Origin: Acidobacteriaceae bacterium
GTDB lineage: Bacteria; Acidobacteriota; Terriglobia; Terriglobales; Acidobacteriaceae
Direction of reading: 5' to 3'
Assembly (NCBI GenBank): GCA_025357215.1
Contig: JANXPR010000473.1
Coordinates: 1-54,743, forward strand
DNA length: 54,743 nt
The notes beneath the pieces were generated by a model. That model was not told where the DNA came from, ran no database searches, and saw nothing but the letters and a program-made list of their open reading frames with translations. How positions within the stretch are numbered: position 1 is the first letter of the stretch; each line of letters starts with the position of its first letter. This document shows positions 16,600 to 46,264 of the stretch, piece by piece. The position numbers and the translations under genes were made by a program.

Positions 16600-16720
16600 T
16601 TTTCCGCCTTCAGTTCCCACCGGCTTGATGCCGCGGGAACGGGGATGTTGAAAGCATCCGCGGGCTCCAGTAGATTCACTGCGCGTTTCGCGCCCAATCC
16701 ACGGGGTTGTTGAAGCCCAC
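16600..16720 (-). ncRNA. NAD+-I riboswitch (nadA motif), two tandem domains
   Basis: The minus strand reads GGGCUUCAACAACCCCGUGGAUU-GGGCGCGAAACGCGC-AGUGAAUCUACUGGAGCCC, followed by GCUUUCAACAUCCCCGUUCCC...GGGAACUGAAGGCGGAAAAA-AUG. The box UUCAACA(A/U)CCCCGU is repeated, closing stems are present, and the second domain's 3' strand overlaps the SD (GAAGGCGGA). Confidence 0.8.
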
Positions 16721-34146: not shown

Positions 34147-34677
34147 ATGCCGATCACTCTTGTTCATCCGGGTAACGAAAAAGTGGCCACCGCAGCCGCG
34201 CCGCCACCGCGACTTAGCACGCTGAGCGGAAAAAAAATCGGCCTGCTGGACATCAGCAAGCCGGGTGGCAGCCACTTCCTTGATCGCATGGAACAACTGT
34301 TGCGCCAAACTTACGGCGCTGCGGACGTTGTCCGCGTAAAGAAGCCCACATATACCAAGAATGCTCCGCAAGCGGTCATTGATCAGTTGCGTGGCATGGA
34401 CGCAGTCATCGAAGGTTTGGCCGATTGAGGATCGTGCACAACGTGCAGTTTGCACGATACGGTCCGCCTAGAGAATCTTGGAATACCCGCTGTAGCCGTC
34501 GCGACCACGGAATTCATGGCGCCCGCGCGAATTCAAGCTGGAGCGCTGGGACGTCCGGGCTTTGACGCTATTTACGTTCAACATCCGATCCAGGACCAGA
34601 CGCTGGAGCAGATTGCCGCGCGCGCGGATGCCGTGGCTGCGGAGATCGTGAAGCGACTAACCACAGCCGGGAAGTGA
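34147..34677 (+). CDS. UGSC-family selenoprotein (TGA 34426-34428 read as selenocysteine; 176 aa)
   Basis: Track ORFs 34147..34428 and 34450..34677 are in the same frame with no other stop between them. The joined sequence is ...DAVIEGLAD-U-GSCTTCSLHDTVRLENLGIPAVAVATTEF.... A hairpin follows the TGA directly. Confidence 0.8.
34431..34458 (+). promoter_or_regulatory. Bacterial SECIS-like stem-loop
   Basis: AUCGUGCA-C-AAC[GUGCA]GUU-UGCACGAU: an 8-bp stem, a bulged C, a 3-bp stem and a 5-nt apical loop beginning GU. It starts 2 nt after the UGA codon (at 34431). Confidence 0.65.
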
Positions 34678-34751: not shown

Positions 34752-34785
34752 CCCGCTGCACGGCAAGCAGCGGGTCTTCCGTTTA
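34752..34785 (+). terminator. Weak terminator-like hairpin after the selenoprotein gene
   Basis: CCCGCTGC-acggcaa-GCAGCGGG followed by TCTTCCGTTT. The U-tract is poor. Confidence 0.3.
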
Positions 34786-35908: not shown

Positions 35909-35937
35909 TTGCCCAACCGTCCATCCTTATATATAGT
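35909..35937 (+). promoter_or_regulatory. Candidate sigma70 promoter TTGCCC-17-TATAGT
   Basis: The -35 box is at 35909-35914 and the -10 box at 35932-35937. The leader-peptide ATG lies only 9 nt downstream. Confidence 0.45.
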
Positions 35938-35946
35938 AATGACCTG

Positions 35947-36030
35947 ATGTTTACTCCTGTCGCCAACATGGCCATGTGCTGTCACACCATGGCTATGCGT
36001 GTGTTCACACAAAGGCAGACAGGTTCATAA
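35947..36030 (+). CDS. Met/Cys-rich leader peptide (27 aa) of a putative transcription attenuator
   Basis: MFTPVANMAMCCHTMAMRVFTQRQTGS* has 5 Met and 2 Cys in the first 17 residues. An intrinsic terminator follows 25 nt later. Confidence 0.55.
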   Translation: MFTPVANMAMCCHTMAMRVFTQRQTGS

Positions 36031-36055
36031 GCAAAGATTCATTCAGCAATTTTTG

Positions 36056-36092
36056 AACCCGCTGCCTCAGGGCAAGCGGGTTTTGTGCTTTT
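36056..36092 (+). terminator. Intrinsic terminator (attenuator) in the 5' leader of the ThrC-paralogue operon
   Basis: AACCCGCTGCC-TCAG-GGC(A)AGCGGGTT followed by TTGTGCTTTT. It lies about 95 nt upstream of ATG 36188. Confidence 0.65.
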
Positions 36093-36187
36093 GGGCCGGA
36101 AGAATCGGACTAAAGCAAGCTAGCAGACAGCGCAGCCGACGAGACATACCTGAGAGCAGCAGAAAACCGAGAGAAGATAAAAAGATC

Positions 36188-37522
36188 ATGAGCAATCAAG
36201 CCAGCACCAAGCCGAAACCGACGCAATTCTACGAACTGCGATGTCGCGAATGCCATACGCCGTGGGGCAACCAGCCGATTTCCTTCTGCCAGAAATGTTT
36301 CGCTCCGCTGGAAGTAGTGTACGACTGGGCGAGCATCAAGCCGCTAATCAGTCGCGACGAAATTGCCCGCCGCGGCACCACGCTGTGGCGCTACAAGGAA
36401 CTGCTTCCGCTTCCCGATGAATACGACGCTTCGCTTCCAGTGGGCTTCACGCCCCTGGTAAAAGCCGCGAACCTGGGTGACGCTCTTCCCGGCGGCAGCG
36501 CGCGCAACAAATCGTTGTACCTAAAAAATGACGCTTCCTGTTTCCCCACGTTGAGCTTCAAGGACCGCGTGGTGGCCGTGGCTCTGGCGCAGGCGCGCAA
36601 CTTCGGGTTTGAAGTCGTCAGTTGCTCTTCCACCGGCAACCTGGCGAACGCCGTTGCGGCGCAAGCCGCGCGCGGCGGATTCAAAGCCTGCGTGTTCATC
36701 CCGTCTGATCTGGAGTCCGCCAAAGTCTTGGGCACGGAGGTCTACGGCGCGCAGATCGTCCGCATTGCCGGCAATTATGACCACGTGAATCGCCTGTGCT
36801 CGCAGATCGCGGACAAACACCGCTGGGGATTTGTGAACGTAAACCTGCGGCCATACTATGCCGAAGGCTCGAAGACCGTAGGTTATGAAATTGCCGAACA
36901 ACTCGGCTGGCGCCTGCCGGACAACGTTGTCGTCCCCATGGCCGGCGGGTCTTTGATTACGAAAATCTACAAGGCGTTCAAAGAACTGGTAGAACTGGGC
37001 CTGGTGGAAGCCAAGAACGTCAAGTTCTTTGGCGCGCAAGCCACCGGCTGCAGCCCAATCAGTACTGCCGTTAAAGCCGGACGCAACGAGATCCAGCCGC
37101 AGAAGCCGGCAACAATTGCGCGCTCGCTGGCCATCGGCAACCCGGCGGACGGATTCTACGCGGCCCGCACTATCGCCAGCACCGGCGGCTGGGCGGAAGA
37201 CGCAAGCGATCCGGAAATTGTGGACGGCATCGCTCTGCTGGCCGAAACCGAAGGCATCTTCACGGAGACCGCGGGCGGCGTGACCGTGGCTTCCGCGCGC
37301 AAGCTCTACGCGCAAGGCCGCATCAAGCCGGAGGAAACTACCGTGCTCTGCATCACCGGCAACGGACTCAAGACCACCGACGCACTCGTCGGACGTTATG
37401 AAGCTTCCGAGCCCATCGCGCCAAAACTGGCGGCGCTTGAAGAATATCTTGAACAAAAACTGGTTGGCGTCTATGAAGCGTTTGGCGAAGCCCGCGCCGG
37501 AGCGCGTGGAGGTGTGCTGTGA
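36188..37522 (+). CDS. Threonine-synthase-family PLP enzyme with N-terminal zinc ribbon (paralogue; candidate sulfur-carrier-dependent homocysteine/cysteine synthase)
   Basis: CRECH...CQKC zinc ribbon and PLP-lysine context FPTLSFKDRVVAVAL, with ThrC-like sequence throughout. Start set at ATG 36188 because the track's upstream extension overlaps the leader and terminator. Confidence 0.85.
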   Translation: MSNQASTKPKPTQFYELRCRECHTPWGNQPISFCQKCFAPLEVVYDWASIKPLISRDEIARRGTTLWRYKELLPLPDEYDASLPVGFTPLVKAANLGDALPGGSARNKSLYLKNDASCFPTLSFKDRVVAVALAQARNFGFEVVSCSSTGNLANAVAAQAARGGFKACVFIPSDLESAKVLGTEVYGAQIVRIAGNYDHVNRLCSQIADKHRWGFVNVNLRPYYAEGSKTVGYEIAEQLGWRLPDNVVVPMAGGSLITKIYKAFKELVELGLVEAKNVKFFGAQATGCSPISTAVKAGRNEIQPQKPATIARSLAIGNPADGFYAARTIASTGGWAEDASDPEIVDGIALLAETEGIFTETAGGVTVASARKLYAQGRIKPEETTVLCITGNGLKTTDALVGRYEASEPIAPKLAALEEYLEQKLVGVYEAFGEARAGARGGVL

Positions 37523-37791
37523 GCGTTACCGTTTCAATTCCGTCGGCCTTCCGGCGGCACACAGAAGGCCTGGATCGCTTTGATGCATCCGCGGCGAACA
37601 TTAATGAACTCCTGGACGTTCTGGGCAATCGCTTCCCTGAACTCAAGCCGCACCTGCGCGATGAGCAAGGCAACGTCCGGCGCTTTCTGAATATTTACGT
37701 CAACGACGAAGACATCCGTTTTCTGGACAAGGACTACAAGTTCGCCGAAGGCGATGACGTAACGCTAGTGCCATCAATTGCAGGGGGGTAG
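37519..37791 (+). CDS. MoaD/ThiS-family ubiquitin-like sulfur-carrier protein ending in Gly-Gly
   Basis: 90 aa ending ...DDVTLVPSIAGG*. Its GTG start overlaps the upstream stop (GTGA), which suggests translational coupling. Confidence 0.85.
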   Translation: MSVTVSIPSAFRRHTEGLDRFDASAANINELLDVLGNRFPELKPHLRDEQGNVRRFLNIYVNDEDIRFLDKDYKFAEGDDVTLVPSIAGG

Positions 37792-41791: not shown

Positions 41792-41872
41792 TTAGGTAGC
41801 GGCTTCATTGGCCAGAGACACGAGTGTCGCCTTACAGCAACACATACACATGTCCTGGCAAAGAATCCGCAT
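41792..41872 (-). CDS. Cys-rich leader peptide (26 aa) of a putative attenuator
   Basis: MRILCQDMCMCCCKATLVSLANEAAT* has 5 Cys and 3 Met in the first 13 residues. It lies between a promoter-like element and the terminator. Confidence 0.55.
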   Translation of the reverse strand: MRILCQDMCMCCCKATLVSLANEAAT

Positions 41873-43455: not shown

Positions 43456-43484
43456 TTGACTCCATCGCACAGCAAAGCTATAGT
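43456..43484 (+). promoter_or_regulatory. Candidate sigma70 promoter TTGACT-17-TATAGT
   Basis: The -35 box is at 43456-43461 and the -10 box at 43479-43484. The leader ATG lies 9 nt downstream. Confidence 0.5.
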
Positions 43485-43493
43485 TCAGGCTAG

Positions 43494-43595
43494 ATGCACC
43501 GGAATCAGAACATCGCGATGGCCAAGACATGCATGTGCACAACAGGCACAGGCACAACTACATCCATGCGATTTTCTGGCGAGCCGGTGAGATAA
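43494..43595 (+). CDS. Thr-rich (plus Met/Cys) leader peptide (33 aa) of the thr operon attenuator
   Basis: MHRNQNIAMAKTCMCTTGTGTTTSMRFSGEPVR* has 7 Thr within 12 residues, plus a CMC motif. Confidence 0.6.
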   Translation: MHRNQNIAMAKTCMCTTGTGTTTSMRFSGEPVR

Positions 43596-43623
43596 GAACT
43601 AAGCAGCAATCATAAAGTTCCTT

Positions 43624-43663
43624 AACCCACTCGCCCAATCAAGCGAGTGGGTTTTTCGCTTTT
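43624..43663 (+). terminator. Intrinsic terminator (attenuator) upstream of thrB
   Basis: AACCCACTCGC-ccaatcaa-GCGAGTGGGTT followed by TTTCGCTTTT. The track ORF start at 43647 falls inside it. Confidence 0.7.
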
Positions 43664-44794: not shown

Positions 44795-46264
44795 ATGAGC
44801 AGCAGACGCTTGATCGTGATGAAATTTGGGGGCACGTCCGTGGGCAACGCGGAACGTATCCGCCAGTGTGCGCAGATTGTGAGTCAGGCGGCGCAGCAGG
44901 ACCGCATTGTGGTGGTGGTATCCGCCATGGCCGGTATCACAGATCTGATCTTCAAGACTATTGATGCCGCGCGGCAGGGCGACGCCGCTTCTACTGAGAC
45001 GAACCTGAAAAAGTTTGAGGCGCTGCACCGCGAGTTGATGGCCGAGTTGTTTGGCGCTTCCGCGCCCGCCGCTGTTGAGTTTCTGGCACAGGTAGTTGCC
45101 CAGTTACAGAAATCAAGCGGCGCGTTGCTTGCATTGCGGACGGACATCTCTGCACAGACCGCCGACTCGCTGGTCGCACTGGGTGAACGCATCACAGCTT
45201 GGGCATTAGCGAATTACCTTCAACAATCTGGCAGTCCGGCCGAATTTGTGGCCGCGGAAAAAGTAATCGCCACGGACGGCAACTTTGGCAACGCCGCTCC
45301 GGACATGGAAGGCACGCGAGCCAACTGCCAGTCCGAATTACTGCCGATCCTGGATCGCGGCGCTTCGCCCATCGTGGCAGGTTACAGCGGCGCTGCTCCT
45401 GGCGGCCAAACCACCACGCTGGGACGCGGCGGTTCAGATTATTCGGCTACGATCATCGGCGCGGCGGCCGGAGCCGACGAAGTCTGGATATGGACTGATG
45501 TTGACGGCGTCCTAACGGCCGATCCGCGCATTTGTCCGGACGCCACTACACTGCCGGAAATCACTTTTCCTGAAGCTATCGAGCTCGCGTATTACGGCGC
45601 CAAAGTTATCCATCCCAAAGCGTCTTATCCCGCGGCGGACGCCGGCTTCCCGGTGTGGATCAAGAATTCGTTTCGCCCGGAAGTCCAAGGCACCAAAATC
45701 ACCAATGACGCAACACCCTGGAATTCTCCGGTCAAGTCCGTGACGTGCGTGAAGAACGCAACGCTCATCACCATGGTCACCCGACGCGACGTGCATCCGG
45801 TAGATCTTTGGGGACGGCTGTTCCTGCGGCTTGGGCAGGAACAGGTTGAAGTACTGTTTGCCACGCAGTCTTCTCCGGAACATGCGCTTGGTCTAGTGTT
45901 GCGCAAAGAAGACAGCGCGCGAGTGCTCAAACTGATCAACACCACGTTCCGCATCGAACTGGCGCAAGGCGTGTTGTTGCCGGTGGAGGTGAACAACGAA
46001 ATTGCCGTGGTGGCCGTGCTGGGCGAATCCATGAAAGGCACCTGCGGCATTCTGGGACGCGTGTTTTCTGCCGTGGCCCGCGAAGAAGTAAGCGTGATTG
46101 CCGTGGCCCAGGGCGCCAGCGAGTTGAGCATATGCTTTGCCGTACCTGCTCCGGCAGCTTCGCAGGTGGTGCGCGCGGTGCATAATGAGTTTTGCGGCAA
46201 GGCGGATTTCTCAGTGCCGGTATGCCTGCGTCCCACGGCAGCGGCCGCTTCAGGAGCGCGATGA
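44795..46264 (+). CDS. lysC: Aspartate kinase
   Basis: LIVMKFGGTSVGNAERI, LGRGGSDYSATIIGAA, and C-terminal ACT-like repeats. SD AGGGAG precedes ATG 44795. Confidence 0.92.
   Translation: MSSRRLIVMKFGGTSVGNAERIRQCAQIVSQAAQQDRIVVVVSAMAGITDLIFKTIDAARQGDAASTETNLKKFEALHRELMAELFGASAPAAVEFLAQVVAQLQKSSGALLALRTDISAQTADSLVALGERITAWALANYLQQSGSPAEFVAAEKVIATDGNFGNAAPDMEGTRANCQSELLPILDRGASPIVAGYSGAAPGGQTTTLGRGGSDYSATIIGAAAGADEVWIWTDVDGVLTADPRICPDATTLPEITFPEAIELAYYGAKVIHPKASYPAADAGFPVWIKNSFRPEVQGTKITNDATPWNSPVKSVTCVKNATLITMVTRRDVHPVDLWGRLFLRLGQEQVEVLFATQSSPEHALGLVLRKEDSARVLKLINTTFRIELAQGVLLPVEVNNEIAVVAVLGESMKGTCGILGRVFSAVAREEVSVIAVAQGASELSICFAVPAPAASQVVRAVHNEFCGKADFSVPVCLRPTAAAASGAR

Follow-up and report, generated by a model that had tools for sequence, protein, structure and literature searches.

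The DNA analysed here (the window) is a stretch of 54,743 nt from an Acidobacteriaceae bacterium (GenBank assembly GCA_025357215.1, contig JANXPR010000473.1, positions 1 to 54,743 of the forward strand), and the element of interest is the leader region (nt 35909-36187) that precedes a gene pair specifying a ThrC-like enzyme and a small sulfur-carrier protein. The leader combines a promoter-like element, a short open reading frame (sORF) rich in Met and Cys codons, a set of overlapping pairing strands and an intrinsic terminator. On the evidence described below it is most likely a ribosome-mediated transcription attenuator of the trpL/thrL kind, which would read Met codons, with Cys as a second input, by means of a leaderless leader peptide. 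The features of the locus are as follows.

35909-35937 (+): sigma-70-type promoter-like element, TTGCCC-17 nt-TATAGT (direct inspection and promoter scan)
35947-36030 (+): predicted leader-peptide sORF, 27 codons plus stop, MFTPVANMAMCCHTMAMRVFTQRQTGS (translation; kept in 75 non-identical leaders)
35956-35964 (+): segment 1, the anti-antiterminator strand, CCUGUCGCC, codons 4-6; pairs with segment 2 in the ribosome-free fold
35967-35997 (+): internal hairpin, CAUGGCCAUGUG paired with CACCAUGGCUAUG (folding; 88.5% of alignment cells paired across 57 sequences)
35968-35997 (+): putative regulatory codons Met8, Met10, Cys11, Cys12, Met15 and Met17 (Met-x-Met at 8/10 universal)
36013-36027 (+): segment 2, AGGCAG-ACA-GGUUCA, the last leader codons up to the stop; pairs with segment 1 or segment 3
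36054-36067 (+): segment 3, UGAACC-CG-CUGCCU, shared by the terminator (as its 5' arm) and the antiterminator (as its 3' strand) (duplex energy; paired cells)
36056-36092 (+): intrinsic terminator, a 12-bp G+C-rich stem with one bulged A, a UCAG loop and a U-rich tail (folding)
36188-37522 (+): probable MetM, a ThrC-family pyridoxal phosphate enzyme that carries a CxxC...CxxC zinc ribbon at its N-terminus (TIGR00260 thrC, 266 bits; Pfam PALP)
37519-37791 (+): ThiS/MoaD-family sulfur-carrier protein of 90 amino acids (aa), probable MetO (Pfam ThiS; NCBIfam MoaD/SAMP1)

The two promoter hexamers lie at 35909-35914 (TTGCCC) and 35932-35937 (TATAGT), with a spacer of 17 nt, and the same pair was returned by the promoter scan. 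The ATG at 35947 follows TATAGT by 9 nt and is not preceded by a Shine-Dalgarno sequence. In the predicted peptide, Met occupies codons 1, 8, 10, 15 and 17 and Cys codons 11 and 12; all ATG triplets of the leader share one frame, which closes with UAA at 36028. The terminator reads AACCCGCUGCC-UCAG-GGCAAGCGGGUU followed by UUGUGCUUUU, and the structural gene starts at ATG 36188, 95 nt past it. A simple terminator scan of the window missed this hairpin, probably because of the one-base bulge in its stem. An initial annotation, made from the letters of the sequence, had placed the promoter with its ATG 9 nt on, a 27-codon ORF with five Met and two Cys in codons 1-17, and a strong terminator about 95 nt before the gene at just these positions, and all of them were recovered here. 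It had also treated a 507-aa ORF, which starts at GTG 35999 and overlaps the leader, as an artefact of the ORF track, and rightly: that ORF is an over-extension through the leader, since the terminator would fall inside it.

The Met/Cys richness of the sORF is not a chance feature. The window has 549 ORFs of 12-45 codons that start with ATG, and six or more Met/Cys codons within ten occur in just two of them, namely the leader at 35947 and a related leader at 41872 on the reverse strand (described below), and no ORF with at least six such codons in ten was present in 20 shuffled windows. The internal hairpin that houses these codons is possibly a transcription-pause hairpin; in divergent lineages (e.g. 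L005) it uses another 3' arm and is still formed.

Relatives of the ThrC-like protein were gathered by a scan of one genome per species, which gave 80 loci. In 56 of these, all from Terriglobia or Candidatus Angelobacter metagenome-assembled genomes, DNA identity over the block 35942-36096 is about 80% (roughly 70-90%), and sequence 5' of the -35 hexamer is not conserved among these 56 related genomes. One more copy (L006), a divergent one, was missed by blastn, and metagenomes yielded 23 further copies. The combined set from genomes and metagenomes comprises 75 non-identical leaders with 65 distinct peptides. The mini-ORF and the terminator, whose conservation in related Acidobacteriota the initial annotation had left to be checked, occur in all 57 aligned leaders, and the consensus of the peptide is MLLSVSNMAMCCxxMAM[RC]VFTxRQKGS. 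The larger set retains the ORF and its Met-x-Met at codons 8/10 without exception (75/75), with two to five internal Met and between none and four Cys. To judge from these alignments, Met8 and Met10 are the universal sensor and the Cys codons are lost in some lineages, which refines the picture first drawn of the element. Most of the ORFs specify 27 residues; those of the frame-shifted leaders have 21-22, and those of an in-frame-deletion clade 23-24. The Met leader is absent from locus L038 (Candidatus Angelobacter sp. Gp1-AA117). There (L038:2150-2520), proC is followed by an intergenic region of about 100 nt and then by the ThrC-like gene, and a leader of the Pro type (see below) is present before proC; L038 may have lost the Met leader, with metM co-transcribed from the proC promoter.

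The spacing of conserved parts within the leaders follows the reading frame. The distance from Met8 to a GGCRG core within segment 2 is 43, 46 or 49 nt in 70 of the 75 leaders, and the remaining five, at 45 or 48 nt, have each gained a stop codon directly 5' of GGCRG. In the non-coding spacer between GGCRG and the terminator, all lengths of 40-47 nt occur, and all three mod-3 classes are represented. The GGCRG core is found in all leaders and the stop codon always lies -3 to +14 nt from it, so a terminating ribosome would always cover that strand. Where the 3' hairpin arm has changed (GCU to GGC, M-A-M to M-G-M), the Met codons are retained and the pairing is lost (pair 27-52). The 5' end is equally constrained: a TTGnnn-17/18-TAnnnT pair stands at the same position in 57/57 related leaders, and the end of the -10 hexamer is 7-10 nt from the start codon in every one of them, a gap too short for any Shine-Dalgarno sequence. 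This promoter-ATG geometry indicates that the sORF is probably translated in leaderless fashion, and a leaderless sORF is the most likely form of the leader ORF that the initial annotation had described. Taken together, the indel pattern, the stop position, the retention of Met and the start position argue that the leader ORF is read and is not a by-product of hairpin arms.

Three overlapping pairings can be drawn in the RNA of the window leader.

1:2, anti-antiterminator: CCUGUCGCC (35956-35964) with segment 2; -15.5 kcal/mol, z = -3.2 against shuffles
2:3, antiterminator: AGGCAG-aCa-GGUUCA (36013-36027) with UGAACC-cG-CUGCCU (36054-36067); -19.0 kcal/mol, z = -5.3
3:4, terminator: 36056-36092; -20.2 kcal/mol

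The antiterminator had been proposed on the strength of a 5-bp match between GGCAG and CTGCC; that pairing is real, yet longer (12-13 bp). Across the aligned leaders, the 1:2 duplex beats shuffles (p <= 0.05) in 51/57 and the 2:3 duplex in 52/57, and in the window and the majority type 1:2 ranges from -15.5 to -17.6 kcal/mol. The proportion of paired alignment cells is 85.8% for 1:2, 87.8% for 2:3 (vs 30-52% when the partners are slid) and 97% for the terminator, which is the most conserved part of the element and the sole helix recovered by RNAalifold.

Because equilibrium folding with ribosome footprints cannot discriminate between the states, a co-transcriptional truncation was used instead: the leader was folded up to the terminator loop, and a 28-nt ribosome footprint was forced to remain unpaired. 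In the ribosome-free truncated RNA of the window, 1:2 is formed and the terminator arm is free. With the footprint on any of codons 8-17 the full 2:3 antiterminator appears, and with the footprint on the stop codon segment 2 is masked and the terminator arm is again free. The initial annotation had likewise supposed that a ribosome at the stop codon would mask the antiterminator, and the model agrees over most of the set: the terminator arm is predicted to be sequestered in 53-55 of the 57 leaders with a footprint on Met8 or Met10, vs 8/57 with one on the stop. Folding thus predicts mutually exclusive structures (1:2, 2:3 and the terminator), and which of them is predicted to form depends on the modelled position of the ribosome.

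The two downstream genes connect the element with methionine. A canonical thrC is present at 46192, in a thrB-ask-thrC-hom cluster, so the gene at 36188 is a paralogue. The carrier protein at 37519, the start of which overlaps the stop of the 36188 gene, ends in ...SIAGG*, i.e. with Gly-Gly. The neighbourhood of the pair includes genes for sulfite reductase and siroheme synthase and cobA on the opposite strand, proC upstream, and thrB, the product of which, O-phosphohomoserine, is the substrate of MetM. A MetM/MetO thiocarboxylate route from O-phosphohomoserine to homocysteine is reported from Streptomyces (Hasebe et al. 2024, as cited in the GapMind preprint, 10.1101/2024.10.14.618325), and MetM is often misannotated as threonine synthase (same preprint). 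By their domains, the Gly-Gly terminus and the leaders of their orthologues, the genes at 36188 and 37519 are a probable MetM/MetO pair.

Those orthologue leaders are of known kinds. In 13 of the 18 loci from distant phyla that were scanned (L057, L058, L063, L067-L071, L073, L076, L077, L079 and L080; Acidimicrobiia, Planctomycetota, Binatia, 'Deltaproteobacteria' and other distant groups), a SAM-I (S-adenosylmethionine) riboswitch lies directly upstream of the orthologue. Locus L061 (2053-2348) has a T-box in this place, with an alignment of GAA-A-AUG-G and a specifier read as AUG (Met), and four of the scanned loci (L059, L064, L065 and L074) have no known RNA family upstream. The leader in the window matches neither RF00162 nor RF00230. 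The presence of SAM-I and T-box leaders on orthologues places the gene in methionine regulons and marks the leader position as a site of regulator turnover. A sulfur amino-acid role for the operon, surmised initially from the codons of the leader, thereby gains independent support from these leaders and from the MetM/MetO match. The trpL/thrL layout proposed at the same time is supported by the computed anatomy, conservation and alternative pairings, and both the reading-frame constraint and the pathway link are likewise observed by computation.

We infer the start of transcription, translation of the sORF, ribosome stalling and the regulatory outcome from the model, which would run as follows. 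The mRNA would start no more than about 3 nt from AUG 35947, if not on it, and its 5' end would be bound by a ribosome. With plentiful Met-tRNA and Cys-tRNA it would run to UAA 36028 and cover segment 2 (36013-36027), leaving segment 3 free for segment 4; the terminator would form and transcription would stop at about 36092. With scarce Met-tRNA or Cys-tRNA, the ribosome would stall on codons 8-17 (35968-35997) and cover or block segment 1 (35956-35964), upon which segment 2 would pair with segment 3 once this was made, preventing the terminator and allowing read-through into metM-metO. If no ribosome were present, segment 1 would pair with segment 2 and the terminator would form. The operon is predicted to convert O-phosphohomoserine and a protein thiocarboxylate into homocysteine, and as it makes homocysteine the loop would amount to end-product control of methionine synthesis.

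Several results weigh against this reading. In the full-length leader at equilibrium the terminator forms in almost every modelled footprint state. Since it always wins, the switch must be kinetic, and the model depends on the truncation chosen; a kinetic decision is normal for classical attenuators. In the ribosome-free truncated RNA, at least 6 of the 12 terminator-arm bases are still paired upstream in 42/57 leaders, and in five of the 15 representatives inspected (L002, L010, L013, L035 and L042) the ribosome-free fold is 2:3 and not 1:2, which means that the no-translation state is not uniformly predicted to be off. Four leaders (L005, L015, L021 and L027) have a weak antiterminator of -9 to -10 kcal/mol. 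The covariation term given by RNAalifold, which recovers the terminator alone, is -0.21, and for helices 1:2 and 2:3 the support consists mainly of conserved pairing potential and a few double changes, with weak covariation. The sequences are close relatives with little variation, which accounts for the weak signal, and register shifts between lineages (e.g. the window vs the majority type) defeat column-based counts of covariation. The Asn and Ala codons of N-M-A-M are nearly invariant at the nucleotide level, which points to an RNA-level constraint on the same bases as the coding constraint. Methionine starvation also lowers the fMet-tRNA needed for leader initiation, so that the response could be blunted or inverted. 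Finally, we know of no demonstration of leaderless translation in Acidobacteriota.

The layout of the metM leader (promoter, ATG 6-10 nt later, sORF, strong terminator, operon) recurs with other codons, both in the window and among relatives.

43456-43663 (+): Thr-type element, sORF MHRNQNIAMAKTCMCTTGTGTTTSMRFSGEPVR at 43494-43595, upstream of thrB-ask-thrC-hom
41906-41727 (-): Cys-type element, sORF MRILCQDMCMCCCKATLVSLANEAAT at 41872-41792, upstream of sulfite reductase, siroheme synthase and cobA
Pro-type loci, in relatives: L009:1020-1205, L021:1170-1365, L022:990-1180, L038, L048, L078, L090, L091, L097, L108, L152, L191, L195 and others

The Thr-type element has TTGACT-17-TATAGT with ATG 43494 9 nt on, seven Thr codons in ten, a GCAATCAT box at 43606 and a terminator, AACCCACUCGC-loop-GCGAGUGGGUUUUUCGCUUUU, at about 43626-43663. 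Thr-rich homologues stand before thrB in L032, L051, L084, L092, L141 and L198, and the element is probably a Thr attenuator. The listed start of thrB, GTG 43647, overlaps the terminator, which makes ATG 43752 the likelier start. The Cys-type element has TTGACA-17-TAGCTT, ATG 41872 6 nt on and a strong terminator at 41767-41727. Its sORF has five Cys codons and, like the metM leader, Met codons at positions 8 and 10; the element is conserved in L084 and L092 with a QDMCxCC core. It is probably a Cys attenuator, and the likely start of the sulfite reductase gene is ATG 41689. The leaderless sORF that stands before proC in relatives has a conserved A-Y-P-L-P core, often with P-N-P as well (e.g. 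MFTSRPNPAQAAYPLPC), and this Pro type shares an almost identical terminator with the Met leader. For proC of the window itself there is a diverged hairpin (34753-34785) but no Pro-type sORF. A scan of all fetched DNA gave the following matches between sORF class and downstream gene, with no crossed case.

Met-type sORF, MetM downstream: 75 cases
Pro-type sORF, ProC downstream: 33 cases, in relatives
Thr-type sORF, ThrB downstream: 6 cases and 1 weaker, window 43494 included
Cys-type sORF, sulfite reductase downstream: 3 cases, window 41872 (-) included

Within one genome, the Met and Pro leaders align from end to end and have in common an N-terminal MFTxxAN, the GCAATCAT box and a near-identical terminator, which suggests that they are paralogous, with their sensor codons exchanged. 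In the ribosome-state model the states of the Pro leaders are poorly separated, the antiterminator being formed in 9/11 on stalling and in 6-7/11 otherwise. The terminator hairpin ACCCGCTGCC-N3-8-GGCAGCGGGT was tried as a signature of the family and rejected, as a scan of metagenomes also located it in unrelated contigs of gut and marine origin, where it is an ordinary terminator; the metagenome contigs with a leaderless sORF just 5' of this hairpin carried Met-type and Pro-type leaders only. The evidence tips slightly towards a paralogous family of leaderless attenuators in Terriglobia (Candidatus Angelobacter and relatives), in which a codon cassette has been swapped on one scaffold (Met/Cys for metM-metO, Cys for sulfite reductase, Thr for the thr operon and Pro for proC) and of which the Met member would be the first to read methionine and would have displaced SAM-I. 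The scaffold would consist of a promoter, an immediate AUG, the sensor-codon cassette, the GGCRG strand, the GCAATCAT box and a near-identical terminator.

Other explanations of the metM leader differ in how much of this evidence they can accommodate. The one that fares best keeps the sensor and changes the output: the sORF would sense Met/Cys by stalling, the main output would be translational or dependent on Rho or RNase, and the hairpin would terminate transcription only partially or incidentally. Mycobacteria provide documented cases of leaderless, Cys-rich sORFs that control translation and lack a terminator, and as the terminator always wins at equilibrium, the transcriptional effect could be of any size. 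Here, however, the 12-bp G+C-rich stem and its U tract are what is best conserved, with 97% of cells paired, and 2:3 overlaps the terminator arm and not the ribosome-binding region of metM, an unconserved stretch some 95 nt downstream. A translational or factor-dependent output is therefore regarded as unlikely.

It is very unlikely that the leader is a metabolite- or protein-binding RNA switch (e.g. a new SAM or homocysteine riboswitch), with the ORF a by-product of CAUGG-type hairpin arms. The ORF, with its post-promoter start and its stop beside segment 2, is present in 75/75 leaders and its indels preserve the frame, and although the Met codons do lie inside a hairpin with near-palindromic arms (CAUGGCCAUG paired with CAUGGCUAUG), they persist where the hairpin pairing is lost. 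The almost invariant synonymous positions of N-M-A-M would suit such a switch, as would the riboswitch control of the same gene in other phyla. A ligand pocket would not, however, predict that the Thr, Cys and Pro codons of the sister elements match thr, sulfite-reductase and proC operons, and the leader has no conserved multi-helix junction or large unpaired conserved core. The known riboswitch and leader families of Rfam were rejected as candidates, since searches with the covariance models gave no match in the leader at gathering score (whole window) and, at E <= 10 (leader), no relevant match beyond a chance one to SmY. That the sORF makes a functional Met/Cys-rich micropeptide (for metal or sulfur handling, or as a substrate of the ThrC-like enzyme and carrier), with the terminator setting the peptide:enzyme stoichiometry, would fit the conservation of the M-A-M-C-C core at the peptide level and the constant linkage of the sORF to metM, but is most unlikely given that the peptide varies freely outside the Met/Cys core, that its terminal conservation coincides with RNA segments 1 and 2, that the ORF ends early in several lineages (21-22 or 23-24 vs 27 residues), that Cys residues are lost in some, and that the Thr- or Pro-run sister sORFs do not share its peptide chemistry.

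Attenuation by a translating ribosome is thus the preferred reading, and in this the leader resembles trpL, thrL, hisL and leuL of Escherichia coli. Like these it has a short ORF enriched in codons of the amino acid that the pathway makes. Its strands are predicted to form an antiterminator and an intrinsic terminator that overlap, as well as an anti-antiterminator that is clear in the window and the majority type, and the position of its stop codon is such that a ribosome terminating there would mask the antiterminator strand. The order of stability is also similar: the E. coli trp pairings are at about -11, -12 and -20 kcal/mol, compared to -15.5, -19.0 and -20.2 kcal/mol in the window. It differs from the classical attenuators in its Met and Cys sensor codons, in having no Shine-Dalgarno sequence and probably being leaderless, in its host phylum (Acidobacteriota) and in controlling metM/metO and not a classical met gene. 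There is no match in sequence or structure to the curated Rfam leader families (Thr_leader, Trp_leader, His_leader, Leu_leader and others), and the element belongs to no curated family, yet appears to act like their members.

Methionine regulons are known to be controlled by SAM riboswitches, T-boxes or repressor proteins. To our knowledge, methionine is missing from the amino acids that are sensed by leader-peptide attenuation, and it is commonly argued that methionine starvation would also block initiation of the leader peptide. The SAM-I (S-box) and Met T-box leaders resemble the present leader in their position upstream of MetM-type orthologues in other phyla and in an output of termination vs antitermination that depends on methionine status, and the T-box also reads tRNA-Met charging. 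They differ in that the RNA itself senses SAM or uncharged tRNA, without translation, and they have no homology to the leader described here. No earlier attenuator with a Met-codon leader peptide was found in the open-access and bioRxiv full-text literature. In Actinobacteria, a comparative study detected no RNA element in front of methionine operons (PMC1262725), and a survey of attenuators lists almost none with assigned functions in Acidobacteria (PMC2965389).

The nearest leaderless precedent is provided by the polycysteine sORFs of mycobacteria, which lack an intrinsic terminator and act at the level of translation, the downstream ribosome-binding site being sequestered by pairing of the Cys-codon tract with the Shine-Dalgarno region (Canestrari et al. 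2020, bioRxiv 10.1101/834739). In both systems a leaderless sORF is the first cistron of a sulfur-metabolism operon and has Cys sensor codons, and in both several loci follow one principle, for which the term ribulon was used in mycobacteria (10.1101/834739). In contrast to the mycobacterial sORFs, the leaders described here have a strong terminator and an overlapping antiterminator, the sORF-proximal strand pairs with the terminator arm, and it is Met, not Cys, codons that are universal. The proposed element is of interest for its methionine specificity, its leaderless design, the putative replacement of a SAM riboswitch and the putative codon-swapped Met/Cys/Thr/Pro family; the mechanism itself is classical.

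Two other features of the window may be mentioned. The match of ORF 34147-34428 (+) to the UGSC (seleno)protein family spans the first half of the profile only. In frame after its TGA at 34426 come the codons GGA TCG TGC, which would give U-G-S-C, and ORF 34450-34677 carries this frame on; the sequence past the TGA could fold into a hairpin. By these signs 34147-34677 (+) is probably a single selenoprotein gene with an in-frame selenocysteine codon, split by ORF calling. On the reverse strand, nt 16606-16717 contain two tandem nadA riboswitch aptamers (Rfam RF03013, 60.6 and 49.7 bits).

If the codon-swapped family exists, its Met member would be the first case in which methionine is read by a ribosome-mediated transcription attenuator, tRNA-Met charging would be sensed by a translating ribosome despite the dependence of initiation on Met, and the Met leader would have displaced the SAM-I riboswitch that serves the same gene in other phyla. 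A conserved leaderless attenuator with Met codons would make the question of initiation directly testable. The leader would also provide regulatory evidence that the ThrC-paralogue/ThiS-like pair of Acidobacteriota is a methionine (homocysteine) module, correcting the annotation of 'threonine synthase' and of the 507-aa ORF. For a soil phylum with almost no characterised cis-regulation, it would mean modular leaderless attenuators for at least four pathways. It would likewise illustrate the turnover of regulators, a leader peptide having taken the place of a riboswitch or T-box, and suggest that the specificity of attenuators evolves by the exchange of codon cassettes.

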